A DNA stretch of 59,632 nt from a virus. This document shows, piece by piece, positions 1,096 to 16,732 of the stretch. The stretch spans positions 1 through 59,632 of the IMG/VR virus record IMGVR_UViG_3300037308_000149. One strand, written 5' to 3'. The notes under the pieces were generated by a model. It searched no databases and was not told the origin of the DNA. It saw only the letters and a list, made by a program, of their open reading frames with translations. The position numbers were made by a program, and so were the translations under genes. Position 1 is the stretch's first letter, and each line of letters opens with the position of its first letter.

Positions 1096-1347
1096 CTACT
1101 CCGTGTCGTCGGACGTTGTCGTGGTGATCTGTCGGCCAAAGCGCGGGTCAAGAGGATTCACCCACGCGATGATGATCGGCAACACCGCAATCAAACCAGC
1201 GGCCAACCACGCCATCCACTCGGACAGATCCCAGTGCACCACCTTGGTGTCAGTAAGATCTGCAAGCCACAGGCCCAGCACCACCGAGACGAACACCCGC
1301 AGCCAGCTGCCTACGGGGTTCTTGAGAAACAGCCATACCTTGCCCAT
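1096..1347 (-). CDS. Small two-TM membrane protein, holin-like
   Basis: The ATG at 1347 is preceded by GGAAGGAGGAACC. The 83-aa product MGKVWLFLKNPVGSWLRVFVSVVLGLWLADL...WLAAGLIAVLPIIIAWV has two hydrophobic segments and a charged C-terminus. Confidence 0.45.
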   Translation of the reverse strand: MGKVWLFLKNPVGSWLRVFVSVVLGLWLADLTDTKVVHWDLSEWMAWLAAGLIAVLPIIIAWVNPLDPRFGRQITTTTSDDTE

Positions 1348-1415
1348 GGTTCCTCCTTCCGTTGGAGTGGCCGGGAGACTCAGAGCTCGTCGGCAACTCC
1401 TTCGTCTCCCGACCA

Positions 1416-1787
1416 CTACCTCGTGGCTGCGATCTGCAGCACAGCCTCACCATACACCAGAACGGAGTCGTTGTCTCCGTCGCTGCGCTTCAACGCATGT
1501 GCAAACTCCTGCTGCGCACCGATCTCGAACTCAACACCAAGCGTATCTGCCGGGTCGATGTAGACCTCACACCGGCCATCTACCGCATTGGTGATCGTGA
1601 TGCCATCGCTTGTTGTCTTGGTGAGCAGAACATCTGTAGAGCTCGGTGTACGCCGCAGCACCCATTCAAGCTCCCAGTTGGTGATGTCTTGTGAGTTGTC
1701 GTCTGGGCGCAGGATGTGAAACTTCAACGTCTTCTTCTCTCCCACGAACCACTCATGCTCTTCTGTGATGGGCGAATACTGGGCCAT
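1416..1787 (-). CDS. Hypothetical protein (beta-rich; possibly structural)
   Basis: 123-aa ORF packed tightly between the giant repeat gene and the holin-like gene. No motif recognised. Confidence 0.6.
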   Translation of the reverse strand: MAQYSPITEEHEWFVGEKKTLKFHILRPDDNSQDITNWELEWVLRRTPSSTDVLLTKTTSDGITITNAVDGRCEVYIDPADTLGVEFEIGAQQEFAHALKRSDGDNDSVLVYGEAVLQIAATR

Positions 1788-1795
1788 GTCTCACC

Positions 1796-4700
1796 TCACT
1801 CCAACGAGACGCTCTCATCGTGAACACCAATCCAATCCTCGTCTGGTTCGTACACCCCGATGTGCTCACTACTTGTAGTGTACCGCCCCGACAGCTCAAT
1901 CGCCCATCGGTTGTACAGCAGAACAGCAATCGGCATGGCCTGGTCTGTCTCAGCGGAAGTCCAAACCATTGTTGCCCCAGGACGGATGAGCTGACTAGCG
2001 GAATCAACCTCCGCCGCAAGGCCAATGGCCCGAACCTTGAGCCGGCCAACAATGAAGGCTGTATCGCTCTCCAGGGCCTGCCCGATGGACACCTTCCTCA
2101 TCGACCCCACCATCAGAGCCACATCCAGCTCCTGGGCCATAGAAAGGGTTCGGGTCTTGTTCCGCGTCAACCCTCCGGCAGAGTCTGTTTCAGAGGCCAT
2201 GCCGATGGAGCGGACCTTCTTTCTGGTGATGAACTGAGCAGAATCGCTCTCTGCTGCTTGCCCAATCGGGAACTCGTTGGCGTGGCCAATGCTGAATGCC
2301 GAGTCTGTCTCTGTTGCGTCACCCACCAAGCGATGCTTCGGAGACCAAGCAACAGCATACGACGTATCGACCTCTGCCGCAAAGCCAAGCACAACACGCC
2401 TGACCAACCTATGCGCTGTATCCGTCTCGAGGGCCTGCCCAATGACGACAGTGCGGCGCAACGTGACACCAAAGGACGTATCCGACTCCAGAGCTTGGCC
2501 GATGGCATGTGCAGTGGCATGGAGCAACGCATGCGCTGTGTCGGACTCAACGGCCTGGCCAAGGAGCACAATCTTCTTCCGAAGCAGAGCTGTTGCCGTG
2601 TCTGCTTCTGCAGCCTGGCCAATGGCTGCGGTCTTCAGGCGGGAGATCTGGAAAGCCTCGTCTGTCTCGAGGGTCTGACCGATAAGCCGAGTCCCAGGAG
2701 CCTCAAGCGGGAATGCCGTGTCTGCTTCAGACGCCATTCCCACGAGACGACGAGGGACAAAGGTGACCGTCTGAGACGAATCAACTTCTGACGCAAGGCC
2801 AACCAGCCGACGCTTGGGAGCGTAGATGGCAAGAGCGGTGTCGCTTTCGATTGCCTGGGCCAGATGGAGGACGCGGTAATGCCCGACAGCAAATGCTGAA
2901 TCGGTCTCCACAGCCTGGCCAACGAGCCTGCTGCGCAACGGAGTTGCCGTGAACGCTGTATCAGTCTCTATGGCCAAGCCAACGGCGATCTTCCTGGTCG
3001 GTCGAGCCTCCTGTCCTGTGTCCGCCTCTAGAGCCTGACCGATTGCCTTGGTCCTGAGCGGTGTCGCAGCCCATGCCGTATCTGTCTCGCTGGCTTGCCC
3101 AACGGCAACCAGTTTCGTCTTGAGAACGGTGACGCCAAACGCCGTGTCCGTCTCTTGCGCTTGCGCGGTGTAGATTCGGTTGGGGCTCTCTGTGATGCCA
3201 AATGCCGTGTCCGTTTCTGTTGCTTGCCCGACGAGCTTGAACTTGGGCAACACCAGGGTGTGGGCCGTATCCGTCTCCAACGCCTGCGCCACAGGAACGA
3301 TGGATGGAGACAGATCGCTCTTGCGCTTCGGCGTCACAACCTGCGCGGTGTCTGCCTCTGACGACTGGCCCAGAGGGAACGCTCTTGCGTGGCCAACAGA
3401 GAAGGCTGTGTTCGTCTCCGTGGCCTGGCCCAAGGCGATGAAGTAGCGACGAATTGCCGTGATGGGCTGCGCTTCATCCGTCTCAAGAATCTGGTTCACC
3501 GGAATAGTGCGCAACGGAGGAGTAGCCTTGCCTGTATCCGTCTCTGTGACCATGCCGATGGCGTAGGTCCGCAGAGGCGTGACCGGCTGCGCCGTATCAA
3601 CCTCTTCTGCAAGGCCGATGGGATTGCCGCCAAGGAAGATTTGGAAGGCAGTGTCCGTTTCAGTTGCCAACCCCACGGCCACGATCTTTGGGATGATGAT
3701 GGCAGCTGCTGTGTCCTGCTCAGACGCTTGCCCCACAAGGCGACGAAGGTCGTATGTGACAGGCTGCGCCGTGTCTGTTTCGGACGACATCGAGACAAGA
3801 CGATGCTTTGGAGCCCAAGCCATTGGCTGGGCTGTGTCCGCCTCTACCGTCAGACCAACCAGCCGTCGCTCTTCAACCCCAACAGAGAACGCCGTATCTG
3901 TCTCAGTTGCTTGGCCAACATACACACGGTTCGGGTTCTCTGTGATTGGGAACGCTGTGTCTGCTTCTGACGTCAGACCAAGCATTCGGTGCTTCGGAGC
4001 CCATGCCGTGCCTTGGGCCGTATCGGCCTCTGACGCCTGACCAATTGCTTTCTGCTTCTTGATGAGCAGCGGCTGTGCAATGTCCGCCTCAATTGCCTGA
4101 CCGATTGACCTCTGTCGGTTGGGTGTCGCAGGCCAAGCAATGTCCGCCTCAATTGCCTGACCGATTGACTTGTTCTTCAGCCTCGTGATGGCGGTAGCAG
4201 TATCTGTCTCTGTCGCCAAGCCAACCGCCAGAGCCTTCGCGTGGGTGATGCTCGTGGCCGTGTCTGTTTCGGTTGCCATGCCAATGAGGCGCGTCTTGGG
4301 GATGGTGATCGCTTGCGCGGTATCTGTCTCCGTAGCCTGGAGAACATCCTCAACCAACGCAGACAAGATTGAGATCTCGCCATACGACAGAACGCCATTG
4401 TTGTCCCAGAGGTACGCGATCTTGGTGCCGTTTCTGTCGTACACCGTAGCATGGACCAGACCAGTGGTCACGTTGTTCTGCAGCTCTTCTTCGCTCCCTG
4501 TCCACGGGGCAATATCATGCCACAGATCTGTTGTAGCATCATCCACAAACAAAGCATGCAGAGTTGTGCCCGCCACCACCAGAGCAAATCGTCCCTCTGT
4601 GCTGTACACAGCATTCTCAACGGTGGTACTGCTAACATCGTCTGTTTGGGTCCATGTTGGCACATCAGCAGAGACGGCGGTCATGATGGAGAGAGCATCC

Positions 4701-6706
4701 GGGACGTTGTTGATGTAAAGAACCGCGAGCTTTGTGTCAGAACCATCCACATACGAGACAGGATGGCAATGCATTCCCTTGCTTGAGTTTCCCTGGTCTA
4801 GTTGCTGGCTCGAGCCTTGTCCTGCTGTGATGTGATGGAGCTGATCGCCGTTCTGGTTGAAGAAGACATGGATACGACTAGACGATCCGACGACAACAGA
4901 TGGCCGCGTGAGGAGCTGGCCTTCAACCAGCTTGAGTGAGAAATCGTATGACCAATCCCCATTACTGTCTCTGGTAGAGTACAAGAGCCAGCTTGTCATT
5001 GGATCGCCGTTGTCACTGGCACAATACACCACGACATGGTAGCCACTTAGATAAGCAACATCCGTTCCGATGGAAGGGTCCCATTCAGGCCCAAGGTCGC
5101 TCGCATCCTCGGCGGTGCCAAAGGACTCTGTGGTTGTATCATAACGAACAAACTGGATCTGGATACCTCCATACACTAAGTCAATATATGAACCAACGAC
5201 CACGCTGGATAGATGACGACCTACGCCGGACGCTCCTGTGTAGTGAGAGGCCATCTTGGACCATGTGCCGGTCGGATCTGACGCTCTGAACACAGAGACG
5301 TAGTTCCCGTCTTGGCCCTCAAGCACAGCATAGAAGTATGAACCGATCTTGTACGGACCTTGCCGGCCATTGCTGCTGCCGAGCTTGCCATTCGTGAAGA
5401 TGAACGTCCTAGAGGGAGTTGTGATTCGAGCGGTGTCAGTCTCCAGAACCTGTCCAACCGTAACAACCTTCTGTACAATTGGGGTGATGTTCTGCGCTGT
5501 ATCCGATTCTGTTGCCTGTCCAACCGCGATGTACTTCGGGAAGGAGAGGGTCTGGGTGAAGGTGATGAAGGAATCACCAGATGCACCCGCAGCCCCGGCA
5601 TAGTAGAGAGTTGCAGTGTAACTGGTTGCCATGCCCCCGTTGTAATCGTCAATGTAGACCCGCACACGAATCCGGGAGCCCACTGGCACAGAGTAATCGT
5701 CACCAGAGACAACGAACTCATTTGAACCCTCAGATGTAGACAACACATACGCATGGGGTGTCTTCGACCAGACAACAGGGTTCGCCCCGCTCGCATCACA
5801 GACAGCAATCTCAAGAACAGGCCTTACTTTAGCAAGGCTGTTGCTCTCCAATGCTCGGAGCTTCACCCACACTGCGCCCGTCAAGGTGAATGCGGCAACC
5901 TGATTCGAGAACCACTCCAAGTAGTTCCCACCAGCCCCAGCCGTCCACAACAACGCATTGGTGGGGCCTGCGACAGTGTTCACGGCCTTGCTCGTCGCGC
6001 CTGCGCCTCGTGACCTACTCAGGAGCTTGGCGTCGTAGGAAGCTCCGTTCGGATCGACCTCTGCAGCACTGTCCGTCAGATAGAGCGACGTGCCTGCGGG
6101 CTGGCTCGTGATGAACGAGAACGTCTCATTGAACTCGATGTACGAGTCACCAACAGCAGCCTGAGTATCCCCGTTGAAGTAGAACGTGCCGGTGTAGCCC
6201 GTGACCATCGTGTTCGCATCGTTCAGGGCCACACGAATACGAAGACGATCGCCCTTGTTGAGAGCGATTGACGCTGGGTCCGCCGTCCAGTTCTGTGCAG
6301 CGGCTGCAGAGTATGGGAGCTCCGAGCCCTTCTCAGAGTTGATGATGGTCGTGAGAGAACCGTCCGGTGCAAGCCGCTCGATGACACACTGGATACCAGT
6401 GTTGGCCGACATGCTGCTCTCAACGGCCCACAAATTGAACGTGATGAGCCCGTCAATGGTCACATCTTGGCCGAGAGGCGGTGAAAGCCATTCAAGCGGA
6501 TAGGTTCCGTCTGTGACCTCAACACCATTGGTAGCACCAGAGACCGTGTTGGCCGCAGCACTTACGTAGGCACTGCCCCTGCTATTGCTGAGCAACATCT
6601 GAGACCACCACGACGCATTGCCGTTCAACTTCGCGTCGTTGTTCACACGACCGTATGATGTGTAACTGCTGGCCACGCCGTTTTGGAAGTACAGGCGAGT
6701 TGCCAT
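1796..6706 (-). CDS. Giant repeat protein (1636 aa from the ATG at 6706). It has two paralogous N-terminal ~190-aa domains, a propeller-like core, and about 40 C-terminal ~20-aa repeats. Putative fibre or adhesin.
   Basis: Uninterrupted 4.9-kb ORF. The ATG at 6706 overlaps the upstream stop as TAATG. Repeat units include IGQATETDTAF, VGLATETDTAT and IGQALESDTAF. Asp-box-like turns SDPTGTW and RDSNGDW are present. Confidence 0.85.
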   Translation of the reverse strand: MATRLYFQNGVASSYTSYGRVNNDAKLNGNASWWSQMLLSNSRGSAYVSAAANTVSGATNGVEVTDGTYPLEWLSPPLGQDVTIDGLITFNLWAVESSMSANTGIQCVIERLAPDGSLTTIINSEKGSELPYSAAAAQNWTADPASIALNKGDRLRIRVALNDANTMVTGYTGTFYFNGDTQAAVGDSYIEFNETFSFITSQPAGTSLYLTDSAAEVDPNGASYDAKLLSRSRGAGATSKAVNTVAGPTNALLWTAGAGGNYLEWFSNQVAAFTLTGAVWVKLRALESNSLAKVRPVLEIAVCDASGANPVVWSKTPHAYVLSTSEGSNEFVVSGDDYSVPVGSRIRVRVYIDDYNGGMATSYTATLYYAGAAGASGDSFITFTQTLSFPKYIAVGQATESDTAQNITPIVQKVVTVGQVLETDTARITTPSRTFIFTNGKLGSSNGRQGPYKIGSYFYAVLEGQDGNYVSVFRASDPTGTWSKMASHYTGASGVGRHLSSVVVGSYIDLVYGGIQIQFVRYDTTTESFGTAEDASDLGPEWDPSIGTDVAYLSGYHVVVYCASDNGDPMTSWLLYSTRDSNGDWSYDFSLKLVEGQLLTRPSVVVGSSSRIHVFFNQNGDQLHHITAGQGSSQQLDQGNSSKGMHCHPVSYVDGSDTKLAVLYINNVPDALSIMTAVSADVPTWTQTDDVSSTTVENAVYSTEGRFALVVAGTTLHALFVDDATTDLWHDIAPWTGSEEELQNNVTTGLVHATVYDRNGTKIAYLWDNNGVLSYGEISILSALVEDVLQATETDTAQAITIPKTRLIGMATETDTATSITHAKALAVGLATETDTATAITRLKNKSIGQAIEADIAWPATPNRQRSIGQAIEADIAQPLLIKKQKAIGQASEADTAQGTAWAPKHRMLGLTSEADTAFPITENPNRVYVGQATETDTAFSVGVEERRLVGLTVEADTAQPMAWAPKHRLVSMSSETDTAQPVTYDLRRLVGQASEQDTAAAIIIPKIVAVGLATETDTAFQIFLGGNPIGLAEEVDTAQPVTPLRTYAIGMVTETDTGKATPPLRTIPVNQILETDEAQPITAIRRYFIALGQATETNTAFSVGHARAFPLGQSSEADTAQVVTPKRKSDLSPSIVPVAQALETDTAHTLVLPKFKLVGQATETDTAFGITESPNRIYTAQAQETDTAFGVTVLKTKLVAVGQASETDTAWAATPLRTKAIGQALEADTGQEARPTRKIAVGLAIETDTAFTATPLRSRLVGQAVETDSAFAVGHYRVLHLAQAIESDTALAIYAPKRRLVGLASEVDSSQTVTFVPRRLVGMASEADTAFPLEAPGTRLIGQTLETDEAFQISRLKTAAIGQAAEADTATALLRKKIVLLGQAVESDTAHALLHATAHAIGQALESDTSFGVTLRRTVVIGQALETDTAHRLVRRVVLGFAAEVDTSYAVAWSPKHRLVGDATETDSAFSIGHANEFPIGQAAESDSAQFITRKKVRSIGMASETDSAGGLTRNKTRTLSMAQELDVALMVGSMRKVSIGQALESDTAFIVGRLKVRAIGLAAEVDSASQLIRPGATMVWTSAETDQAMPIAVLLYNRWAIELSGRYTTSSEHIGVYEPDEDWIGVHDESVSLE
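1940..4345 (-). repeat. Protein-level tandem array: about 40 units of 18-22 codons built on G-x-A-x-E-x-D-T-A
   Basis: I listed 40 consecutive units in the translated ORF. Codons differ between units, so the DNA copies are diverged. Confidence 0.8.
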
Positions 6707-6933
6707 TATGGCCTCACCCACCTATGCCATGGCCTGCGGTGCGGTGCAGGCGCATTGAGATCTCTGATCCCAGGCCATCCGTTGATACGGAACCATATCC
6801 GCTTCCAGAGAGGCGTCTGAAGCGTATCAAATCTCTGGTCATGGTCTGACACCATACGCTCCATCTGCTCAACCCTGACAGTCAACGAGTTGAGTTGCTG
6901 TTCAGCCTCCTCACGGGAACGGATCTTGACCAC
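6706..6933 (-). CDS. Hypothetical small protein (coiled-coil-like N-terminus)
   Basis: GTG start at 6933, directly after the upstream stop. REEAEQQLNSLTVRVEQMERMV is heptad-like. Confidence 0.45.
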   Translation of the reverse strand: MVKIRSREEAEQQLNSLTVRVEQMERMVSDHDQRFDTLQTPLWKRIWFRINGWPGIRDLNAPAPHRRPWHRWVRP

Positions 6934-6934
6934 G

Positions 6935-7822
6935 CTACTTCACCGTCCTCACCTGCCACCGATGCGAATGGGAGGAGATGCTTTGGTCTGAGTAGGAATT
7001 GCTCAACACTGTGTCCAGATGGACACCGTCCCGGAAGACCTCGTACGCAGTCGCTCCTGTGACCGCATTCCAGGACAGGTCTACACGGTTCTCGCTGATG
7101 ATCGTGGCCACCAGATTCCGAGGCTTGCCAAACGTCGCCATGCTCGGAGCTGTATCGGCCTCAGACGATTGATTGACTGGCGTGGCCTGCCCTGAAGAGG
7201 CGTGGACGACAACGAGTTTGGGGTCGTAAGTGGTGCCGGTTTCATCGGCAGCCGAGAAGTGGACGGCTTCGTACCACCTCCATTGTGACCCTGGTTGGTT
7301 GCCCGCCACATGACGGGACGAACACAGCAGCATTCGTGTCGAACCGGTCTTGCTCACGTTGGACGCAAAGGCCGTTTCGGACGTGAAGTCCTTGTACTCG
7401 CCCGTCGAGCCGATACCACTCGTAGCCTTCGTCGCCAACAGCGTTTTGCTTGAAAGGTCAGCACCGGCTACCCAGTCAGCCTCGGAGAGACTGCTGCCGT
7501 AGTCATGCACGCGAACCTGAACGGTGAACTCCGCATCGGTGGAAATGTCAGTCGCCAGCCAGAGCGACAAGATTGCGGAGCTGATGGTGTCTTCGTCGGG
7601 GATGTCCGACGTAACAAACCCGATGAATCCCTCCGAACACGCGAAATAGTCAGTGTACCCCAACCACGAACTACCGGTTTGCATGTTCTCCTGGCCGACC
7701 GCAATCACGGTACTGCTAGGCCAAACGTGGAAACCGGTACCTGAGCGGCAGGTCGTGTAGTCAGACGAGTTGGACTCGATGTACCCATCGTTCGTATCGC
7801 TGTAGAACGTGGAGGTGGTCAC
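6935..7822 (-). CDS. Putative structural or accessory protein: a DNRLRE/CBM-like N-terminal domain, one SEADTA motif, and a C-terminal FN3-like domain
   Basis: 295-aa ORF. TFYSDTNDGYI...ISSAILSLWL...DPKLVV resembles DNRLRE-type domains. The C-terminus NLVATIISENRVDLSWNAVTGATAYEVFRDG is FN3-like. Confidence 0.6.
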   Translation of the reverse strand: MTTSTFYSDTNDGYIESNSSDYTTCRSGTGFHVWPSSTVIAVGQENMQTGSSWLGYTDYFACSEGFIGFVTSDIPDEDTISSAILSLWLATDISTDAEFTVQVRVHDYGSSLSEADWVAGADLSSKTLLATKATSGIGSTGEYKDFTSETAFASNVSKTGSTRMLLCSSRHVAGNQPGSQWRWYEAVHFSAADETGTTYDPKLVVVHASSGQATPVNQSSEADTAPSMATFGKPRNLVATIISENRVDLSWNAVTGATAYEVFRDGVHLDTVLSNSYSDQSISSHSHRWQVRTVK

Positions 7823-8481
7823 AGCCGATGCACCGCCTGTTCGCGGGTGAACGGTGTTCGGGCTTCTAGCGCAGACTCAACTTCCCGAGTCTCGTCATCG
7901 ACCACTACCACGCCATCCCAGGGATTGCCCCGATTCGGCCTGACCCGTTGAGTCGCCTGCGCCCGACGAACCTGTTCCGACGTCGCGCCCCAGCCGAGCC
8001 ACTTGAACAGGTCGGTCCACACGATGCGGTCGGGCGTCGTGATGTAGGCGTCCGGTCGTTCCTCAAGGACCCGAGAGTGCATCTCCCGGTAGACCCACAA
8101 CAGTTGCTCGACCTGCGTCCCATCGGGAATGGATATCTGCGGCAGGTCACCATCCCATATGCGCCGACGTTCAGGGCGCATCAAGCCGAACGCGACAGCA
8201 GAGCGAACCCACACCTCAGCGGGACGCCACAGATGGATGACCTTGCCATTCAGTCGCTCTGAAACGAAGCAGAGCCAGAACGCCACCTCGTTCGGGTGCG
8301 GCACGATGGCAGCGACTTCTGCATCCGTGACAGGCTGACGAGTCCAACTACGTCGGTTTACCCTCCGTGCATCCGCGTTGAACGCGTCCCGGCATTCGTG
8401 GTGTGTTTCGTTCACGACAGACAAACACCGGGCGAGCATGGTGGTCCCTGAGCGCGGCGGACCGACGCCGTAGACGTTCAT
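7819..8481 (-). CDS. Sulfotransferase-like protein (P-loop-type PAPS-binding motif)
   Basis: The ATG at 8481 overlaps the upstream stop (ATGA). MNVYGVGPPRSGTTML matches the 5-prime-PSB loop, and LWRPAEVWVRS is 3-prime-PB-like. Confidence 0.55.
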   Translation of the reverse strand: MNVYGVGPPRSGTTMLARCLSVVNETHHECRDAFNADARRVNRRSWTRQPVTDAEVAAIVPHPNEVAFWLCFVSERLNGKVIHLWRPAEVWVRSAVAFGLMRPERRRIWDGDLPQISIPDGTQVEQLLWVYREMHSRVLEERPDAYITTPDRIVWTDLFKWLGWGATSEQVRRAQATQRVRPNRGNPWDGVVVVDDETREVESALEARTPFTREQAVHRL

Positions 8482-8831
8482 TCTGACCATCCCAACTGAC
8501 GAGCGCGGAACGTCACGGCATCGTAGACCATCGCTTTCGCCGCGTTCAAGACCTCGGACGTGTCGATGATGGGTTCGCCGTCTCCGTAGTACCCGATGAC
8601 GATACCTAACGGCGGGTTGAAGAACTGGTATGGGTTGTCGGTAGGCAACGGCCCGTTCGCGTCCTCGGCTGTGATCGTTGCTCCGATGCCATTGCCGTCC
8701 GGCGTCATATACGGATTCTCTGCGGTAAATGTGATCCCGCGATCCGTCCAGCGCAACCTTCTCCGAGGCCCAGTCGCAATCTGGAGCCAACGGTCGTAGT
8801 GCGCCTGCGCTCGTTCTGCAGCGGTCGGCAT
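8478..8831 (-). CDS. Hypothetical protein
   Basis: 117-aa ORF with globular-looking composition. Its stop overlaps the next start. Confidence 0.6.
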   Translation of the reverse strand: MPTAAERAQAHYDRWLQIATGPRRRLRWTDRGITFTAENPYMTPDGNGIGATITAEDANGPLPTDNPYQFFNPPLGIVIGYYGDGEPIIDTSEVLNAAKAMVYDAVTFRARQLGWSE

Positions 8832-8848
8832 CTTCAGTTGTCTGACGA

Positions 8849-9325
8849 TCAGGCAGCGCGGAAGAACCCAGCAGATGCGATCTGTGCCGTGAGGTCCGAA
8901 CCGTCCGTCGTCACCGAGAAGTCATGGTACGTGCACGGGATGCCCGTGGTGTCAGCACCAGAGGTGTCTGGGAAGTAGACAATGACCAACTTCCCAAGGG
9001 TGTTGTTGGTGGCGCCACCTGCCGTTGTCCATGTCTGGTCGGCGATGTCCAGGTCGATCCTGTTGTTGCCGTCGTCCGGAGCCGGCATCGTGATGTCGGA
9101 ATCCGTCAACGTCTTTCTGGCGTAGTTTGTGAAGTCGGCCTCATCGTTGGTCCCTGCCAACAGAGCCGAGATCGTGTCGTAGTTGTTGAGCGTGTCTTCC
9201 GCCTCAAGCCCTGAGGACTTCAGGAGAACGACCTTGAAGCCTGATGTGCTCGGGTCGTTGCTGTCGACGCGATAGAAGAACTCCGCGACGCGACCCTTGG
9301 CGATGTTGAAAACGCCATCAGCCAT
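8849..9325 (-). CDS. Hypothetical protein (possibly structural)
   Basis: 158-aa ORF. The ATG at 9325 overlaps the stop of the upstream 48-aa ORF. Confidence 0.65.
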   Translation of the reverse strand: MADGVFNIAKGRVAEFFYRVDSNDPSTSGFKVVLLKSSGLEAEDTLNNYDTISALLAGTNDEADFTNYARKTLTDSDITMPAPDDGNNRIDLDIADQTWTTAGGATNNTLGKLVIVYFPDTSGADTTGIPCTYHDFSVTTDGSDLTAQIASAGFFRAA

Positions 9326-9464
9326 TCTTCACTCCTTCCTTTCCTGCGCCGGATTTCTCGCCGGCCTGCCCAACCCCAACCAACTTCTCCCTGCTGCCAT
9401 CCGAGTAGATCGTGATGGTGTTGCCGAACTCGTCCTTCTCCTCCCCGACGATGACCTTGTCCAT
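9318..9464 (-). CDS. Small hypothetical protein (48 aa)
   Basis: Below the ORF-track cutoff. The ATG at 9464 is preceded by GAAGGAGGTAGCC. Product: MDKVIVGEEKDEFGNTITIYSDGSREKLVGVGQAGEKSGAGKEGVKNG. Confidence 0.4.
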   Translation of the reverse strand: MDKVIVGEEKDEFGNTITIYSDGSREKLVGVGQAGEKSGAGKEGVKNG

Positions 9465-9466
9465 GG

Positions 9467-9703
9467 CTACCTCCTTCTCTTCTTCCATCGCTTGATGGAT
9501 GCGCTTCTCTTGGCCAGGCCAGGATACCGCCGAGACACCGCACGGTAGACCTTCGCTTTCTCCTTCGGAGACCCGTGCTGCGCAACCCTCGCCAAGGCGT
9601 TTCGCGCATGGGCCAGGTCGTTGATGGGATACCCACGCTTGCCAGGGATGGCAAACTGCTTCGACTTCATCCGTTTGCGACCCTTGCTCGTGAGACGCGC
9701 CAT
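9467..9703 (-). CDS. Small basic hypothetical protein
   Basis: ATG at 9703. It carries the motif FAIPGKRGYPINDLAHARNALARVAQHGS, which I recall as common in small phage proteins. Confidence 0.5.
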   Translation of the reverse strand: MARLTSKGRKRMKSKQFAIPGKRGYPINDLAHARNALARVAQHGSPKEKAKVYRAVSRRYPGLAKRSASIKRWKKRRR

Positions 9704-9708
9704 GTCGA

Positions 9709-9834
9709 TCACTTCCGCTTCCTGCCTCGCTGCTTCCGCACGAACTTCGCTGCAGCCCGATCCAGAGCAGCGCCCTTGAGTCCTGTCAGACGACCGATGT
9801 TCTTCTTCGCCTGCTGCTTGCTGATGCCGGCCAT
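9709..9834 (-). CDS. Small basic hypothetical protein (41 aa)
   Basis: Below the ORF-track cutoff. The ATG at 9834 is preceded by GAAGGAGGTGAGC. Product: MAGISKQQAKKNIGRLTGLKGAALDRAAAKFVRKQRGRKRK. Confidence 0.4.
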   Translation of the reverse strand: MAGISKQQAKKNIGRLTGLKGAALDRAAAKFVRKQRGRKRK

Positions 9835-9860
9835 GCTCACCTCCTTCCTCGGCACCGCCC

Positions 9861-10214
9861 TTAGTCTACCGTATGGTTCTCATCATCCCTCCTGGTCTGC
9901 GCTTCAACCTTCAGCGCAAGCTGGAGACCGATGATGAGCAGAACAATCTGTAGCGTCGCCCAGAATTCTCGCCACGAGACCGGGCTCTCGTCAACAAGGA
10001 GACTGAACCGACGAGACGCACCGTATCCTGCAACGATTGCGATGCCAGTGCCCAGCCAGACAACAGCCGTCCACATCTTCCTGATGTGATGACGATCGTG
10101 GTTGCTCTGTCGCTCTCGGAACGCACGCCATACGGTGTAGCACGCCAGTCCGAACAGGATGCCGTACAAGGCGATCCCCACAGACCTCGTCGCATCGACA
10201 ACCGTAGATGACAT
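9861..10214 (-). CDS. Membrane protein (about 3 TM segments)
   Basis: The ATG at 10214 is preceded by GGGAGG. Hydrophobic segments: IALYGILFGLACYTVW, AVVWLGTGIAIVAGY and LQIVLLIIGLQLAL. Confidence 0.55.
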   Translation of the reverse strand: MSSTVVDATRSVGIALYGILFGLACYTVWRAFRERQSNHDRHHIRKMWTAVVWLGTGIAIVAGYGASRRFSLLVDESPVSWREFWATLQIVLLIIGLQLALKVEAQTRRDDENHTVD

Positions 10215-10215
10215 A

Positions 10216-10428
10216 TCATGGCCTCCCGTTGCCGTTGCGAGAACGCCTGAAGACCCTTGCTCCCCAGATGGCCCCGATGACACCTGACATGATGAAGGCT
10301 ACTTCTGGACGAGGTTGGAAGTCCCTGATGAAGACAGCTGCACCATAGGTGATGGCCCAAACAAGAGACACCACGATGATGACGAAGACCTCAACCTTGT
10401 CACGAGCGGGCTGGGCCAACAGGATCAC
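10216..10428 (-). CDS. Small membrane protein (2 TM segments)
   Basis: 70-aa ORF with a GTG start. Hydrophobic segments: VFVIIVVSLVWAITYGAAVF and FIMSGVIGAIWGA. Confidence 0.45.
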   Translation of the reverse strand: MILLAQPARDKVEVFVIIVVSLVWAITYGAAVFIRDFQPRPEVAFIMSGVIGAIWGARVFRRSRNGNGRP

Positions 10429-10536
10429 CTACTTTCTGCGAAGACCAAAGACAGTCCAAGCCACAAGGACTCCGATGAATGCTCCGGCCGCAGACCAGAG
10501 GAAATACTGTGTGGACTCAACCATCCCCATCACCAT
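10429..10536 (-). CDS. Very small single-TM protein; start uncertain (10524-10536)
   Basis: MVMGMVESTQYFLWSAAGAFIGVLVAWTVFGLRRK. The start codons overlap the end of the TerS-like gene. Confidence 0.35.
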   Translation of the reverse strand: MVMGMVESTQYFLWSAAGAFIGVLVAWTVFGLRRK

Positions 10537-11119
10537 CGACGACCTCTCCTTCGATGATGTCCCCCTCTGTGAGTTCTGGAACATCAGCTGCCTGTCCATC
10601 ATGGCCAATGATAGCATTGGCAACCACCTTCTGCCATGGCGCTTCGGCTACAGTGACATCCATCCTTTCGATCGGCTTGCCCAGCACCCGGTCATAGAGC
10701 ATCTCAATCGCCCGGAGCTGGGTGCTGGTGATGAACTCCGGGTTGATCTTCTTGATGACCTCCATGTGCTTCTCGACTGCATACTTCAGCTCAGCAACGA
10801 ACGTGTGCTGGGCCTTGGCCATCATTCGTCGCGCCAGCTCCTGGTGGATGTCGATCGGAACAACGTGCGGCACACGGCCTCCCACACGCCTCCCGTTCTT
10901 GTCATAGTTGTACCGAGCACCACGGATGAGTTCCTCATCTGTCCATTCGGAGAGGTCTTCCTTGCCTTCCATCATGCGGACGACGTTGCGCCCCACCTTG
11001 ACGAGACCCTCGCCACTCTTCCACTTGTACACGGTGGACTTGGCCGTCTTGCTCTGTGGTCCAGACCTGCGCTGCTGCATGATGGTGGTCTTGTCGCTCG
11101 GTCGACGTCTACCGGCCAT
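10517..11119 (-). CDS. Possible terminase small subunit or DNA-binding protein
   Basis: The ATG at 11119 is preceded by GGGAGGG. The 200-aa product has a basic N-terminus, a helical middle (ELIRGARY..., IDIHQELARRMMAKA) and an acidic tail. The function call rests on general resemblance only. Confidence 0.4.
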   Translation of the reverse strand: MAGRRRPSDKTTIMQQRRSGPQSKTAKSTVYKWKSGEGLVKVGRNVVRMMEGKEDLSEWTDEELIRGARYNYDKNGRRVGGRVPHVVPIDIHQELARRMMAKAQHTFVAELKYAVEKHMEVIKKINPEFITSTQLRAIEMLYDRVLGKPIERMDVTVAEAPWQKVVANAIIGHDGQAADVPELTEGDIIEGEVVDGDGDG

Positions 11120-11216
11120 CAGCCCTCCCGATAGATGATGCGGTGCGCCCGAGGACCCCACCATGGGGCCCAACGATTGGGATCGAGATGGTCTATCCGG
11201 ACGCACCGCACCACGA

Positions 11217-11405
11217 TCACTCCTCGGCCAACACCATGTGATCGTCGGAGACGCCGAGGCGACGCATCGCCTTTTGGGCATCCTCAACGCTCTTGTATCC
11301 CTCGCCACCATCGGCGATGATCTGGCGATTCTTGAAGTCACGGATCCTGAAACGCCACTCGCCAGCAGCGTCCCTGTAATACTCTCCGACGTTATAGGTC
11401 TCCAT
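11217..11405 (-). CDS. DUF1508 (YegP-like) domain protein
   Basis: The ATG at 11405 is preceded by GGAGGGGATGAGGAAG. YYRDAAGEWRFRIRDFKNRQIIADGGEGYKSVEDAQKAM matches my recollection of the YegP repeat consensus. Confidence 0.6.
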   Translation of the reverse strand: METYNVGEYYRDAAGEWRFRIRDFKNRQIIADGGEGYKSVEDAQKAMRRLGVSDDHMVLAEE

Positions 11406-11691
11406 CTTCCTCATCCCCTCCGTCCTCTTCTGTCTCCAGGTCGTACACGGCATCCATCTGCTCCTGGATCTCGAAGTATCGGCGCGCATGGAGCAGCATC
11501 CCATCACGGAGCCATGGCGCCATGTCGGAGCTGTAGTCAGTCGCTAGCTCCTTCAAGCCAGACTCCGGAACAACGTACTCCGCAATGAGGACGTACCCAG
11601 TCAGCAGAGCACCCTCGGGGACAAGGACCTGCGTGACGATGGACTCGAGAGTCTCTTCGGCTTCCTTCTCTTCACGCTCGAGGTCGTCCAT
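11392..11691 (-). CDS. Acidic hypothetical protein
   Basis: The ATG at 11691 lies just after the upstream stop (11696). MDDLEREEKEAEETLES... with an acidic C-terminus. Confidence 0.5.
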   Translation of the reverse strand: MDDLEREEKEAEETLESIVTQVLVPEGALLTGYVLIAEYVVPESGLKELATDYSSDMAPWLRDGMLLHARRYFEIQEQMDAVYDLETEEDGGDEEDGDL

Positions 11692-11695
11692 TCCT

Positions 11696-12406
11696 TCAGC
11701 ACCTCGCTGCGTAGCCATTGATGAGCCACCAGCGACCCTCCATGTGGTTGTGGTAATGGTACCCACCGCTGTAGTAGTGCCACCCTTGGAACGGATCCCA
11801 GATCATGCTGGCGATGATCATCCTGCCGAGAGGAAGTCCGTCATCGCCATTCGTTGTCTGCCAACGCTTTCCGAGGGCCACAGCCTCGTATGCCGCGTCC
11901 TTCATGGCATCCATCGTGTTGAGGAACTCGTCGCTGGCATTGGCCCCATCGCCAGGGATGTTGTTGTTGTCCATCCATCGGCAGTGCTGGCTCAGTCGCC
12001 CAGAGGTGAACTTGTACACGCAGATGCCTGCGTTCCGACTGCCGCCGAACGTGGCATGCCACCACGTGTAGATAAGGTCGATGTCGTCGTTGCCGCTGGT
12101 GTCCTTGATCGCAGGGAGACTCTCCACCCAACGCGACACGATGGAGTACGGATGCTCCATGATGTCCACAACGATGACGTCTCCCTTGTCGTTGTTGGCT
12201 GCGGCCAGGACCTTCCACCTCTCCATCAGCTTGGCATGGTCATGGAAGATCTGACCGAACTCATCCCCTCTGATCTTCAGTCGCCAACCATCACTCGCAT
12301 TGCCCTTGCGGCGCGACTGGTCTGAGACGACATCAGCGGCATCACGCAACGACAGCGGAGGTGTGACATCTCCGTTAGGCTTCGACACCACGAGCTCCGT
12401 ATTCAT
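11696..12406 (-). CDS. Hypothetical protein with a His-rich C-terminal motif (GGYHYHNHMEG)
   Basis: The ATG at 12406 overlaps the upstream stop (ATGA). 236 aa. A metallo-enzyme role is only a guess. Confidence 0.6.
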   Translation of the reverse strand: MNTELVVSKPNGDVTPPLSLRDAADVVSDQSRRKGNASDGWRLKIRGDEFGQIFHDHAKLMERWKVLAAANNDKGDVIVVDIMEHPYSIVSRWVESLPAIKDTSGNDDIDLIYTWWHATFGGSRNAGICVYKFTSGRLSQHCRWMDNNNIPGDGANASDEFLNTMDAMKDAAYEAVALGKRWQTTNGDDGLPLGRMIIASMIWDPFQGWHYYSGGYHYHNHMEGRWWLINGYAARC

Positions 12407-12639
12407 CCGACGATCACCCCTTCCCTTGCCTTGCAAAGGACTGCTCCGCACTCGTGGCAGTGACAGAACCAGTCACGGCAGAACTGCGGCCTGTTCTCGT
12501 AGTCCATACAGAGCCGTGTCTGCCAGTTGAAGTTGACGCAGGACCATGTTCCATCCCACTGCTGCTTGAACAGATGGACGAGCTCATCGGGGACCGGACC
12601 TGGATTCCCGTGGCAACAAGACCCATCACACTCCTTCAT
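12403..12639 (-). CDS. YkgJ-type Cys-cluster (zinc/iron-chelating CxxCxxCC-like) protein
   Basis: ECDGSCCH...SCVNFNWQTRLCMDYENRPQFCRDWFC fits my recollection of the family pattern. Confidence 0.55.
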   Translation of the reverse strand: MKECDGSCCHGNPGPVPDELVHLFKQQWDGTWSCVNFNWQTRLCMDYENRPQFCRDWFCHCHECGAVLCKAREGVIVG

Positions 12640-12860
12640 CAGATCTTGATGTCCTTGATGGACTCAATGCCGCCATGCTTCCACTTGTCGGGCTCTGCCT
12701 CGATGTCCGCAGCAACATCTGGGTCCTGCTCTGTCCTGTAGATCAGCCGCAGCTTCTCCTCCGCGGTGGCTGTGCCATATACACCAGAGGCTGCAGGACC
12801 ACTGCCCTCGAACTCTGATGCGGCCAGCTTCTTCTTCTTGGGCCAGTACCACATCGTCAT
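12639..12860 (-). CDS. Hypothetical protein
   Basis: 73-aa ORF abutting its neighbours. Confidence 0.45.
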   Translation of the reverse strand: MTMWYWPKKKKLAASEFEGSGPAASGVYGTATAEEKLRLIYRTEQDPDVAADIEAEPDKWKHGGIESIKDIKI

Positions 12861-12948
12861 ATCGCCTCCTCTGGTGAGAGTTGGGGGCCGACCCGAGATG
12901 CGGCCAGCATCTCGCTTCCCCTGTTTGACGGGTCGGCCCCCAACGTCT

Positions 12949-13227
12949 TCATCGCTGCGTGATCCTCATGCCGATCCGTGTCTCGCCAACCTTGGCTGAG
13001 CAGGACAGAGCCGTGCCGTCCTTGCTTGGGGCACAGCGCACAGTCCCGCCCAGCTTGGCGATGCCAGCCACGAACACAGCCGCAGCGTCAGCAGCCAGCG
13101 TCACATACTCAGCAGCCATCGGCTTCTTCGCCGCAGGCTTCCGAACACGCTTCGCAGCAGGCCTTTTGGCCGCCGTCTTCTTCGGAGCTACCACGATCTT
13201 GCCTCCTTCTTCCGACGATGGACCCAT
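12949..13227 (-). CDS. Small protein with a histone H1-like Lys/Ala/Pro-rich N-terminal tail
   Basis: APKKTAAKRPAAKRVRKPAAKKP followed by a ~55-aa globular part. No clear RBS. Confidence 0.45.
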   Translation of the reverse strand: MGPSSEEGGKIVVAPKKTAAKRPAAKRVRKPAAKKPMAAEYVTLAADAAAVFVAGIAKLGGTVRCAPSKDGTALSCSAKVGETRIGMRITQR

Positions 13228-13242
13228 CAAGCGAAGTATACC

Positions 13243-13527
13243 CTATGTCTCCCTCCTTCCGTCTCTGTCAAATGGCAGATGCGAGGCCACAGAGAGTCCT
13301 GATGGCTTCCCATGCGGCCAACCACGAGACCCGACATGCTCACGCAGCCTCGAGAGAATCTCGTGACAACGCTGCTCTGTCCCTGTGCCCACGATGGTCT
13401 TGCCAGCAGGGCCGACAGCAACCACTGCGTGGCCACCCACCACACCGTTGTGCTTGCCGATCACCAGTGCTTCGGTCACTGCCAGGTTGCACAGCGATCC
13501 GTCCTCACATTCAACCCACATCATCAC
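13243..13527 (-). CDS. Hypothetical protein
   Basis: 94-aa ORF. Its start region overlaps the upstream stop. Confidence 0.45.
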   Translation of the reverse strand: MMMWVECEDGSLCNLAVTEALVIGKHNGVVGGHAVVAVGPAGKTIVGTGTEQRCHEILSRLREHVGSRGWPHGKPSGLSVASHLPFDRDGRRET

Positions 13528-13658
13528 TCCTCCCCATCGTCACCGTCGCCTACAATCTCAACCATGGACTCACGCAGCTGTACACAAGCGAACTGCTGGC
13601 ACTCGCAATCTGCCGCAGAGCACTCATGCTCTTCTCTGTCACACGATGAACACCACAT
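13524..13658 (-). CDS. Small Cys-rich protein (44 aa)
   Basis: Below the ORF-track cutoff. The ATG at 13658 is preceded by GGAGACGGAGGA. Product: MWCSSCDREEHECSAADCECQQFACVQLRESMVEIVGDGDDGEE. Confidence 0.35.
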   Translation of the reverse strand: MWCSSCDREEHECSAADCECQQFACVQLRESMVEIVGDGDDGEE

Positions 13659-13933
13659 CAGTCCTCCGTCTCCCTCTTCCGTCCGTACACCGCAACGATC
13701 GTCAGTCGGAACGTCTTGTCCTCAACAGCGATGTCAATCGTTCCGGAATGCTCAGAGACGTGCCCAGTCTCCCATTCCATCTCAGGCACCATCACGCCTC
13801 CGACCATGTACTCTTTGAGCGCCTCCTCGACGACGGCGACCAAGCCTCTTACGTCCACTCCGGATCCTCCTTTCTTCCCGAGTCGGCTTCTCCGGAAGCA
13901 TCTTCGCTTCCTCACCCAACCGAAGATCCTCAT
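13658..13933 (-). CDS. Hypothetical protein; the true start is probably internal (GTG near 13858)
   Basis: The globular-looking part is VDVRGLVAVVEEALKEYMVGGVMVPEMEWETGHVSEHSGTIDIAVEDKTFRLTIVAVYG. Confidence 0.4.
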   Translation of the reverse strand: MRIFGWVRKRRCFRRSRLGKKGGSGVDVRGLVAVVEEALKEYMVGGVMVPEMEWETGHVSEHSGTIDIAVEDKTFRLTIVAVYGRKRETED

Positions 13934-14069
13934 CGCTCATCAGATGCCATCGATGGTTGCCTCGGTGGCCAGCCCACAACACACAGGTCCAAGACCCAAT
14001 CGTCTCGACGGGGAAGTGCCCAGGTTCGCTGCGCAGCAGTACCTGGCGAACATACGGGCATCGCTCCAT
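13782..14069 (-). CDS. Small Cys/His protein with an Arg-rich tail; paralog of 33328..33555
   Basis: The ATG at 14069 is preceded by GAGAGGAGTGAG. It shares the motif GSWTCVLWAGHRGNH (compare GPTWTCVLNRGHVGKC) and the downstream SDEDLRLG (compare SDQERG) with the ORF at 33328..33555. Confidence 0.45.
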   Translation of the reverse strand: MERCPYVRQVLLRSEPGHFPVETIGSWTCVLWAGHRGNHRWHLMSDEDLRLGEEAKMLPEKPTREERRIRSGRKRLGRRRRGGAQRVHGRRRDGA

Positions 14070-14108
14070 CTCACTCCTCTCTCATCATATCCTGTCGGCT
14101 GCCTGCCA

Positions 14109-14678
14109 TCACAAGACATCATCCAGGATCTCCTGCCGAAAGCCGCCACGTCCAGCATACATCCTTCTCAGGAACAACACCAGATGCCTCAGGGCATCCT
14201 TGCTGTGCCGATTCTCTCCACGCAGATCGGCCATCGGGAACCCAAGGGCCTTCAGAACATCATCCGTCACAACGCCCTTCGCCTGCGATGGCGTCTGACG
14301 AACCACCGTCACACCGAACCAGTTCTCCTTCTGGCCCTCACGATGGTTCATGATGGACTGGATGGCCGAGATCGCCCCATCCAATTTGATCGGAACCAAC
14401 GACGACTTCTTCAGCGACTTGCCACCCACAAGCAAGAAATGGTCAGACGACTCCACCACCAGGATCCGCGAATGGAGACGCGTCACGCCCATCCCGATCT
14501 TCCATGACTGCTCCTCAACGGTCCCCGCAACAAGTCCCCACTCAAACTGCGCCGCATACTCAGGGTCCGCGACGCCCTTCCCCTTCAGAGGAGACTCGCC
14601 ATCCACCGCAAGCAAGAGAGGACACCACGCCAACCCAGTGGTCTCACCAGGATCGATCGCCAACACCGAGCCGTCCAT
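14109..14678 (-). CDS. ruvC: RuvC-like Holliday junction resolvase
   Basis: The ATG at 14678 overlaps the upstream stop (TGATG). It has VLAIDPGETTGLAW, VVESSD and NRHSKDALRH, the catalytic-acid pattern of phage RuvC-like nucleases. Confidence 0.75.
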   Translation of the reverse strand: MDGSVLAIDPGETTGLAWCPLLLAVDGESPLKGKGVADPEYAAQFEWGLVAGTVEEQSWKIGMGVTRLHSRILVVESSDHFLLVGGKSLKKSSLVPIKLDGAISAIQSIMNHREGQKENWFGVTVVRQTPSQAKGVVTDDVLKALGFPMADLRGENRHSKDALRHLVLFLRRMYAGRGGFRQEILDDVL

Positions 14679-14854
14679 CACATCCACTCCAGAAGCTCCG
14701 CATAGCAAACATCACACAGATCCGTCTCGCCCATCTTGTCAATCGGCTGAACATCATCGCCAACCTTCTTCACCTCGCGAACGAACACCTCGTGCCACCC
14801 TCCACTGCAATTCGCTGCGCATCGGTCACAGGTCACAACCTCCGTCTTCGCCAT
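14678..14854 (-). CDS. Small zinc-ribbon protein
   Basis: The ATG at 14854 is preceded by GGAAAGGAG. It has CDRC...CDVC pairs and is the first gene after the 14.9-15.1 kb intergenic element. Confidence 0.5.
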   Translation of the reverse strand: MAKTEVVTCDRCAANCSGGWHEVFVREVKKVGDDVQPIDKMGETDLCDVCYAELLEWM

Positions 14855-14905
14855 CACCGACTCCTTTCCCATCGCACAAGACGCCCTTCAAAGCGGCACA
14901 AGACG

Positions 14906-15106
14906 CTTCGCGCGAGAGATACGCATACGCGAAACGCCTCCCCTGCCCTCCCCGTTTCTTCTCCCTCCCTCCCTTCTGACTGACTGACTGAATCTAGTTC
15001 TAGACAAGACTACATCTTCCCCTACTCTACGTCGTAGGCCACCGGCCCTAGCACAACTTCGCGTATCCGTATCTCGCGCGCGAGCGATACGCAATACGCG
15101 AGATGG
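14906..15106. promoter_or_regulatory. Intergenic element bounded by inverted copies of a GATACGCATACGCG-type motif, with a C-rich (sense-strand G-rich) core
   Basis: The motif occurs at 14906-14936 (direct), 15057-15082 (inverted) and 15076-15106 (direct). There is no credible ORF between 14855 and 15107. Confidence 0.5.
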
Positions 15107-15107
15107 T

Positions 15108-16547: not shown

Positions 16548-16732
16548 GTCTTCTTGACCCCAACTGGCACCTGCTCTGGAACGATGGTTCCCTTTTCTAT
16601 CATCGACTCATGGGCCTCCTCAGCTGTCATCGGTCCATACTGTAACTCTGAAACCGCTGCGGACGAGCGTTCCTTGTACCTCTTGTCGTTGCTGGGCCGA
16701 GGCTTGATGATCTTGAGCCTGATGGCTGGCAT
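16520..16732 (-). CDS. Small hypothetical protein (70 aa)
   Basis: ATG at 16732. Product: MPAIRLKIIKPRPSNDKRYKERSSAAVSELQYGPMTAEEAHESMIEKGTIVPEQ... Only this C-terminal part of the longer track ORF looks coding. Confidence 0.35.
   Translation of the reverse strand: MPAIRLKIIKPRPSNDKRYKERSSAAVSELQYGPMTAEEAHESMIEKGTIVPEQVPVGVKKTWWRRWLGL

Follow-up and report, generated by a model that had tools for sequence, protein, structure and literature searches.

A giant phage protein with an E-x-D-T-A repeat array, its recurrent 158-residue partner gene, and a possible accessory virion appendage

The viral genome IMGVR_UViG_3300037308_000149, analyzed here over its whole length of 59,632 bp (the window), is that of a siphophage with nearly all of its genes on the minus strand, and it carries at 1796..6706 (-) a gene for a modular repeat protein of 1636 amino acids (aa). 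The open reading frame (ORF) spans 1796..6721 (-), with the stop codon at 1796-1798, and we place the real start at the ATG at 6706; this ATG overlaps the TAA of an upstream 75-aa ORF (TAATG) and is preceded by the Shine-Dalgarno-like sequence GGTGAGG. The 1636-aa product is identical to the JGI gene call P0001, and a megablast search of the gene against phage records finds no match among cultured phages. About 2.1 kb upstream, on the same strand (8849..9325), is a gene for a conserved 158-aa protein that matches PHROG 26662 (function unknown) at E 3.1e-34. This partner gene is the most informative feature of the locus, and its pairing with the repeat protein is the main new result.

The giant protein contains 41 copies of the motif E-x-[DN]-[TSIEV]-[AGS], compared to 0.77 +/- 0.88 in 2000 shuffles (maximum, 6), which bears out the claim of an earlier note on this DNA, made from its letters alone, that there are about 40 tandem units. 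The units are phased, with a spacing of exactly 20 aa in 28 of 40 cases, and residue autocorrelation has sharp peaks at lags 20 and 40 (0.31 at lag 20 against a background of ~0.06). Two proximal units (aa 392-436; 5399..5530 (-); core Glu at aa 400 and 422) link the second N-terminal domain, N2, to the central domain, and 39 others plus one degenerate unit (SAETDQA) form the array at aa 785-1593 (1928..4354 (-)). The consensus is a-[VI]-G-Q-A-x-E-T-D-T-A-[QF]-x-[IV]-T-x-x-[KR]-x-[KR], with only about two large hydrophobic positions per unit. Tandem Repeats Finder (TRF) detects no tandem repeat in the DNA, the mean identity between units is 37% for amino acids and 46% for nucleotides (nt), and identical residues in different units share a codon in only 40% of cases. 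It is thus the protein sequence that maintains the periodicity, as had also been claimed, and the TRF result rules out recent DNA duplication as the origin of the array.

The acidic pair is the most constant part of the unit. Among 820 units from 41 proteins, the Glu is conserved in 98% and the Asp in 92%, compared to 77% for the turn Gly and 81% for the following Ala; no basic position is conserved above 60%, and His never occurs at the Glu or Asp position. The array of the relative P0003 has 11 K/R residues against 48 D/E in 400 aa, and the acids are thus not paired with basic residues. Several other readings of the units were considered and set aside. Lys-Asp isopeptide or Thr-Gln ester cross-links are unlikely, with Lys at ~25% at any position and Gln at 66%, and a protein lacing the capsid with one unit per capsomer is unlikely given that homologues range from 1 to more than 45 units. 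The array is not an RTX beta-roll, having a period of 20 aa, one Gly per unit, no GGxGxD motif, and no Pfam match, nor is it of the T4-type G-x-H-x-H metal-binding kind, as the units have E-x-D and not H-x-H.

A full HMMER scan with aa 785-1636 against 1.84 billion cluster representatives (protein clusters at 50% identity) returned 2371 matches at E<=1e-3, 1616 at E<=1e-10, and 382 at E<=1e-30, and the carriers are phages and prophages of many phyla. The units of the relatives are even more canonical than those of the giant protein (e.g., VNQASETDTAQPIT), and their arrays are interleaved with varied globular domains, including LamG and small beta-sandwiches. The sole library match is PHROG 14065 (function unknown; E 9.5e-49); there is no match in Pfam, NCBIfam, or PDB sequences, and no description was found in the literature. 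The earlier note had proposed a search with a hidden Markov model (HMM) of the repeat as a check on its statement that the repeat belongs to no named family, and the statement stands, with only an unannotated PHROG and these 2371 clusters recovered and no characterized family. The same numbers show that the repeat is neither rare nor private, and the position of the repeats on the C-terminal side, which it called unusual, is the usual layout among relatives. In a tblastn search of 50,697 deposited phage records, only Streptomyces Hiyaaviruses match, through proteins annotated as 'minor tail / hypothetical' at 24-30% identity; their version of the repeat is degenerate, and its units lack the E/D pair. 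The canonical repeat protein P0133 has no tblastn match in the phage records. On the evidence of these sequence comparisons, the E-x-D-T-A unit defines a large undescribed repeat family.

The N-terminal part of the giant protein consists of two domains, N1 (aa 1-193; 6128..6706 (-)) and N2 (aa 194-392; 5531..6127 (-)), which are 33% identical (E 1.5e-15); the alignment identifies them as true paralogues, as had been proposed. AlphaFold2 (AF2) prediction of aa 1-800, run on an alignment with 37 homologues, models aa 1-392 as two beta-sandwiches with predicted local distance difference test (pLDDT) scores of >90. Foldseek places both models with the CocE/PepX C-terminal domains, CBM22, and CBM32 (probability, 1.0; E ~1e-5), and the predicted fold is the jelly-roll beta-sandwich of galactose-binding domain-like and carbohydrate-binding (CBM) modules. 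The best Foldseek matches among viral models (BFVD) are collagen-repeat, S74-chaperone, minor-tail, and receptor-binding proteins, and a precomputed PF08530 match is present on two N1/N2 homologues. The N1/N2 pair is thus predicted to be lectin-like. In about 40 of the 50 homologues found, N1+N2 forms a stand-alone protein of ~415 aa, and tblastn of N1/N2 against the phage records gives no match.

The double domain is combined with more than one kind of repeat. Proteins with this N-terminal module, or genes adjoining them, carry unrelated tandem repeats of 14 to 22 aa (P0004, P0006, P0007, P0009, P0010, and L003 11816-13891), among them the His-rich A-x-H-x-H-T-A-A-N-V, THLVDALLKKTQTK, TWGTWTATATA, P-x-G-I-A-S-x-E-x-F-G, and V-H-G-V-A-G-x-L-x-G-x-G-D-A, so that an entire group of shaft repeats awaits characterization. 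In P0004 the shared N-terminal module is followed by A-x-H-x-H-T-A units at the same spacing as the E-x-D-T-A units, together with one hybrid A-Y-H-A-D-S-A unit. The unit HMM finds no detectable sequence similarity in the H-x-H repeats of P0004, so that the kinship of the two types is by pattern only. Since the same N-terminal module occurs with different repeats, the family is best described as a kit of exchangeable heads and shafts.

Between N2 and the array is a beta-rich orphan domain (aa 437-784; 4355..5398 (-)). It has no match in Pfam, NCBIfam, or PDB sequences, no homologue in a word-indexed search of a 5.8-billion-protein index, only itself as a jackhmmer match among all fetched sequences, and no BLASTP similarity to the BNR-containing N terminus of P0003. 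AF2 gives one confident four-stranded sheet (aa 452-489) and pLDDT values of 30-50 elsewhere, with no homologues in the alignment. The Asp-box-like turns reported earlier are present, as SDPTGTW (aa 476) and RDSNGDW (aa 579), but each departs from the canonical S-x-D-x-G-x-T-W by one residue inserted between D and G. With only these two off-pattern motifs and no Pfam or NCBIfam match even at E<=10, the domain lacks the sequence signature of BNR/Asp-box (sialidase-like) propellers. About seven segments of ~50 aa have a blade-like pattern as judged by eye, and the propeller suggested earlier, possibly with 6 to 7 blades, is plausible though unproven. At the other end of the protein is an acidic nonrepeat tail of ~43 aa (1799..1927 (-); net charge, -7; low AF2 confidence), whose 'GVHDES' motif is also found at the C terminus of P0002.

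Searches with the whole protein add little to this domain picture. Pfam, run on the whole protein and on five segments, and NCBIfam return sub-threshold noise alone, including DHQS_C, BACON_2, and Mcl1_mid, which we rejected, and the whole 1636-aa sequence has no match among PDB sequences. No profile of a named tail-fibre, tailspike, or collagen-like family is matched (none in Pfam or PDB, and only the unannotated 14065 in PHROGs). A precomputed Pfam tag, PF26607, is listed for P0001; the tag is not among our local Pfam scan matches, a query with the exact P0001 sequence returned no record, and we found no mention of the tag in the literature. It probably marks the central domain or the C terminus, because the other repeat proteins and the N1/N2 homologues do not carry it.

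The association of the repeat protein with the 158-aa gene extends well beyond the window. We chose viral loci (IMG/VR) by DNA pattern alone, requiring two E-T-D-T-A cores 20 codons apart, and obtained at least 119 loci, 94 of which have an ORF with at least three units. A homologue of the 158-aa protein is present in 76 of these 119 repeat-selected loci, mostly at E<1e-30. All 76 of the partner loci have a member of the repeat-protein cluster, and the median distance from the end of the 158-aa gene to the start of that member is 809 nt. Among the 57 listed loci with both a 158-aa gene and an ORF of at least three units, the partner is upstream and on the same strand, with the exceptions of L112 and L128. 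Homologues are also found at 25 loci of bacterial genomes or metagenome-assembled genomes (MAGs; L130-L154), and the pairing recurs in Alpha- and Gammaproteobacteria, Chloroflexi, Planctomycetes, Gemmatimonadetes, Bacteroidetes, and Actinomycetes. The window protein is 57% identical to the product of the gene after the capsid gene in L006 (the P0002 contig) and 42% identical to Keanu gp12, which directly precedes the Hiyaavirus repeat protein; a further homologue, Pam4 gp34, is next to a repeat-type protein. Among cultured actinomycetes, homologues occur in Actinomadura sp. DC4 (locus L144, with a 519-aa protein of 9 canonical units), Amycolatopsis jejuensis, Herbidospora mongoliensis, and several Streptomyces, and the Streptomyces loci have downstream proteins of 620 to 850 aa that are missed by the E-x-D unit model and may hold degenerate units.

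An N-terminal domain of ~220 aa with the pattern ..GD(L/I)hhhhh....P.GW... recurs in repeat proteins encoded directly after the 158-aa gene (L041 7458-8177, L046 7500-8259, L073 5990-6670, L088 5002-5661, L105 1234-2050, and L125 1100-1900), and it has no Pfam match. A similar stretch lies in the N-terminal region of the J-like protein of Pam4 (Pam4_36; L007 13552-14700). This domain may be the part of the repeat protein that meets the 158-aa protein.

Gene maps drawn for 15 loci show where the pair is normally encoded. The gene upstream of the pair codes for a major head protein in 6 of 10 sampled loci, with five different PHROGs represented, and the portal and an S49 protease are encoded further upstream; sampled downstream genes code for a head-tail adaptor, head closure protein, tail terminator, and major tail protein. 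The same order of capsid gene, 158-aa gene, repeat protein gene, and connector genes is found in Hiyaavirus, the P0003 contig, and L006. Since relatives encode the cassette after the major capsid protein and before the head-tail adaptor, a head or neck appendage is at least as likely as a tail fibre. The earlier proposal of a very long fibre or shaft is reasonable insofar as this is a modular, all-beta, fibre-like protein of tailed phages with virion-structural neighborhoods in relatives; the fibre itself is unproven.

In the window the arrangement differs. An exact 127-bp direct repeat at 1-127 and 59506-59632 implies a circular assembly with a genome of 59,505 bp, and the gene for TerL (~470-488 aa; 59189..1147 (-)) spans the junction. 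The order of transcription is 158-aa protein, 76-aa ORF, 220-aa protein, 295-aa protein, 75-aa protein, giant protein, 123-aa protein, 106-aa membrane protein, TerL, and portal. The giant gene is thus outside the tail module, as had been stated, yet contiguous with the start of the morphogenesis block, and the statement misleads in that only two small ORFs separate the gene from those for TerL and portal on the circular genome. The major head protein is encoded at 53691-54923, and the other morphogenesis genes include those for portal, a MuF-like protein, the major tail protein, the tape-measure protein, and a J-like protein; replication genes code for a helicase, primase, and DnaE-like polymerase. 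No small terminase subunit was recognized. The cassette adjoins DNA-metabolism genes and not capsid genes in 2 of 10 sampled loci and likewise in the window phage, and in all three it has moved as a block. The near-identical contig L155 has the same gene calls.

The small genes of the cassette are a mixed group. The 75-aa protein (6706..6933 (-)), which is translationally coupled to the giant protein, has an N-terminal coiled coil and a Trp/Arg-rich C terminus; its homologues of 72 to 76 aa are always encoded directly upstream of N1/N2-type genes (L003 9782-10000, with 58% identity and E 4e-19; L004 2196-2426; L005 216-446) and share the C-terminal pattern LQT..WK.(I/V)WF.(I/V)NGWPG...W.RW.RP. 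The 295-aa protein (6935..7822 (-)) combines a DNRLRE-like lectin domain (NCBIfam DNRLRE_dom, E 0.0017, below the family cutoff), one E-x-D-T-A unit, and an FN3-like domain (PHROG 7440 Ig-like region). Its single unit, VNQSSEADTAP (ATPVNQSSEADTAPS), is an interdomain element in a second protein of the cassette. On the other side of the giant gene, the 123-aa protein (1416-1787 (-)) has a weak match to PHROG 1084 (unknown function), and a resemblance to BppU_N seen by eye was dropped when BLAST and Pfam did not support it; the 106-aa protein (1096-1416 (-)) has an apparent transmembrane segment (VWLFLKNPVGSWLRVFVSVVLGLWLADL). We note that clues to the host conflict: the gene for the DnaE-like DNA polymerase III alpha subunit (16855-19935 (-)), with its nearest DNA matches at 66-67% identity in Microbacterium, Mycobacterium, Gordonia, and Streptomyces phages, is the only actinobacterial hint, and the closest 158-aa homologues are from proteobacterial and Chloroflexi MAGs.

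The cassette also codes for a 220-aa P-loop (GPPRSGTT) sulfotransferase-like protein (7819..8481 (-); Pfam Sulfotransfer_3, E 0.0032, below the cutoff; boundaries match L155). A second sulfotransferase-like gene (15604-16242 (-); 211 aa) has a weak precomputed Sulfotransfer_2 match in the twin contig L155, and methyltransferase genes adjoin the corresponding cassettes of Keanu/Galactica and of the P0003 contig. Modification of the fibre or of glycans is a possible role for these enzymes. Together with the lectin-like domain content and the adjacency of the cassette to DNA-metabolism genes in the window phage and two sampled loci, they are what one would expect if the giant protein were not part of the virion at all. 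It would then be secreted or released at lysis as a glycan-binding or glycan-degrading protein, or would modify the host surface (in superinfection exclusion or biofilm interaction, for example), with the sulfotransferase-like neighbor acting on host glycans. We consider this very improbable, however: no signal peptide, catalytic family, or depolymerase match was found, the dominant position of the cassette is on the same strand within the head-to-connector structural block, the combination of >1000 aa and a repetitive shaft is what structural fibres typically show, and the viral structural neighbors of N1/N2 are fibre or minor-tail proteins.

Structure prediction of the array is less informative than that of N1/N2. 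An AF2 monomer model built with 40 homologues has a mean pLDDT of 46, with values of 55-77 in its best half; the five models do not agree with one another, and their pLDDT falls from 46 to 28. In the better-scored half each unit is modeled as a beta-hairpin, in which a strand (K-x-R-a-V), a turn (G-Q), a second strand (A-x-E-T-D-T-A), and a loop follow one another. Foldseek of the array model against PDB gives nothing below E=2, and the beta-helix neighbors, all nonsignificant, were not used as matches. At this level of confidence the earlier suggestion of a possibly new fold is not one that can be claimed. The array might instead be a monomeric beta-solenoid or beta-roll with one or two strands to each 20-aa rung, possibly calcium dependent in the manner of RTX or curli-type proteins, forming a ~20-nm rod in place of a trimeric fibre that serves as a capsid decoration, spacer, or surface 'brush'. 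The regular strand-turn-strand rungs in the better-scored half of the model would suit such a structure, as would the right-handed beta-helix proteins that are its only Foldseek neighbors, nonsignificant as they are, and the conserved turn Gly and acidic pair are compatible with calcium-binding turns. Nonetheless, a solenoid is quite unlikely: AF2 is usually confident on monomeric solenoids, and here the pLDDT is low and the models disagree; some two large hydrophobic positions per unit are few for a solenoid core; GGxGxD is absent; and single and double units act as interdomain linkers, where a solenoid cannot form.

The only structural lead for the 158-aa protein is to the tail tip. The top PDB match of its profiles is the 'tail wing arm' gp31 of mycobacteriophage Bxb1 (9D93), with E 0.11 for a profile of 5 sequences and 0.57 for one of 63, and hhalign of the family against gp31 gives probabilities of 78% and 61% over the C-terminal 45 to 46 columns. 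The alignment falls on the conserved Y..HD..F.V.P.G.DI..GF.R positions of the 158-aa family, and we regard this possible kinship as a lead, not a result. The appendage could be of the same kind but a side fibre or 'wing' of the tail tip, as in Bxb1, where gp31 connects a base protein on the tail tip with a glycan-binding brush at the far end. The order of arm, small ORF, and distal protein equals that of Bxb1 gp31-gp32-gp33, and in Pam4 the partner gene follows the tape-measure and baseplate genes and adjoins a J-like protein with degenerate N-terminal G-Q-A units. The tail module of the window encodes no other long fibre, and the 295-aa neighbor has an FN3-like domain, as reported for the Bxb1 wing base gp30 (bioRxiv 10.64898/2025.12.12.693979). 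Still, most sampled loci have the cassette between capsid and connector genes and not after the tape-measure or tip genes, the similarity to gp31 is not significant, and no homologue of gp30 or gp33 was found, and we judge a tail-tip wing unlikely overall. Gene order favors the head or neck, and the gp31 lead and Pam4 leave room for the tail tip.

We therefore favor, at about an even chance of being correct, a reading of the giant protein as an accessory virion appendage, a long modular adhesin fibre. The 158-aa protein would act as an adaptor on the virion side and anchor the fibre to the capsid or neck. Oligomerization of the repeats, probably to a trimer, would produce a thin shaft of beta structure ~20-50 nm long; a rise of 0.48 nm per rung in a solenoid corresponds to an array of ~20 nm, and ~1.3 nm per unit in a fibre resembling a triple beta-spiral to ~50 nm. 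The A-x-E-x-D-x-A strand would face the fibre axis, with the invariant Glu/Asp pair chelating cations at every rung, an idea supported by the A-x-H-x-H-T-A units and the H-A-D hybrid of P0004, the low conservation of basic residues, and the charge of the P0003 array. Reversible binding of host-surface polysaccharide by the beta-sandwich and central domains would increase the rate of adsorption, and the appendage should be nonessential.

Several observations weigh against this reading. With a mean array pLDDT of 46 (55-77 in the best stretch) and no Foldseek match, neither the hairpin unit nor the oligomeric state nor the placement of the acids at the axis can be taken as established. The Hiyaavirus units lack the E/D pair, and cation sites are therefore not universal in the wider family, and the ExD and HxH units have no detectable sequence similarity. 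The link to gp31 is not statistically significant and does not improve with a deeper profile (E 0.57). The Pam4 homologue of the 158-aa protein is encoded in a tail-tip block and gp31 is a tail-tip protein, which together make a tail location possible, and conservation of the 158-aa protein across different capsid families fits a fibre partner better than a capsid binder. No sugar-binding site was identified.

A broader proposal, which we put forward tentatively and consider less probable than the appendage reading itself, is that these genes represent an undescribed appendage system spanning phyla. The 158-aa protein would be a common dock, and the E-x-D-T-A array would be a shaft with a new, cation-stapled oligomeric beta fold, stapled at every 20-residue rung and carrying interchangeable lectin domains, and the usual place of these genes would be after the capsid gene and before those of the connector.

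The host range of phages, the kinetics of their adsorption, and their sticking to surfaces are shaped by accessory fibres and by adhesins of the capsid or neck, and to our knowledge most such proteins of uncultured phages are unannotated. What was one odd giant ORF is now a searchable two-gene signature, the 158-aa partner and the E-x-D-T-A repeat protein, which occurs in thousands of protein clusters and in prophages from six or more phyla of bacteria and so far has no name, structure, or paper. If a cation-stapled oligomeric shaft is indeed formed, it would be a new fibrous-protein building block and a modular scaffold for the display of binding domains. Carriers that can be cultivated include the Streptomyces phages Hiyaa, Keanu, and Galactica, the cyanophage Pam4, and the Actinomadura sp. 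DC4 prophage, and the question is therefore directly testable. The value at present is that of a defined, searchable system with cultivable representatives, not of a demonstrated new mechanism.

Among known systems, the only direct profile matches are PHROG 14065 for the repeat protein and PHROG 26662 for the partner, both of them families without a function, structure, or literature description. More distant likenesses are to characterized fibres. The shafts of the adenovirus fibre and reovirus sigma1 are triple beta-spirals, with which the array shares a short beta-hairpin repeat, a conserved turn Gly, few hydrophobic residues, and a long thin shaft with a lectin-like head. However, the E-x-D-T-A unit is 20 aa compared to ~15, has a different consensus and an invariant acidic pair, and is found with N-terminal or internal heads, and the likeness is without structural support. 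Metal-stapled trimeric fibres with H-x-H motifs include the T4 gp37 needle and gp12 and the spike tips of P2 gpV and phi92 gp138. They resemble the array in having a periodic potential ligand pair (i, i+2) on a beta-strand flanked by small residues, and differ in that the E-x-D ligands would be carboxylates, there is no sequence similarity, and the site occurs 41 times as against a few; both the trimer and the metal are only proposed here.

Capsid-anchored head fibres and decoration proteins, such as phi29 gp8.5, T4 Hoc, and the crAss001 head fibre with its auxiliary capsid protein, are similar in genetic setting: a gene directly after the major capsid gene, an accessory and portable character, adhesin-like domains, and a fibre paired with a small protein. 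Neither sequence nor fold similarity to them was detected, and the 158-aa partner spans unrelated capsid families, which is unusual for a capsid binder. In the wing of Bxb1, the base gp30 binds the tail spike protein and carries both gp31 and the brush gp33, with gp31 as the link between base and brush; deletion of gp30 is tolerated (PMC12646305). The similarity of our system to this tail wing is sub-significant, the distal part of the Bxb1 wing is a Gly-rich polyproline II (PPII) bundle in contrast to a 20-aa beta repeat, and the Bxb1 genes end the tail module, whereas the E-x-D-T-A cassette usually follows the capsid gene. What the two have in common is a nonessential accessory appendage (proposed as such here), a gene for a small arm or adaptor that shortly precedes the distal module and is separated from it by a small ORF, a neighbor containing an FN3 domain, and, at the sub-significant level given above, an alignment of ~45 C-terminal residues of the 158-aa partner with gp31 at the conserved positions of the partner family.

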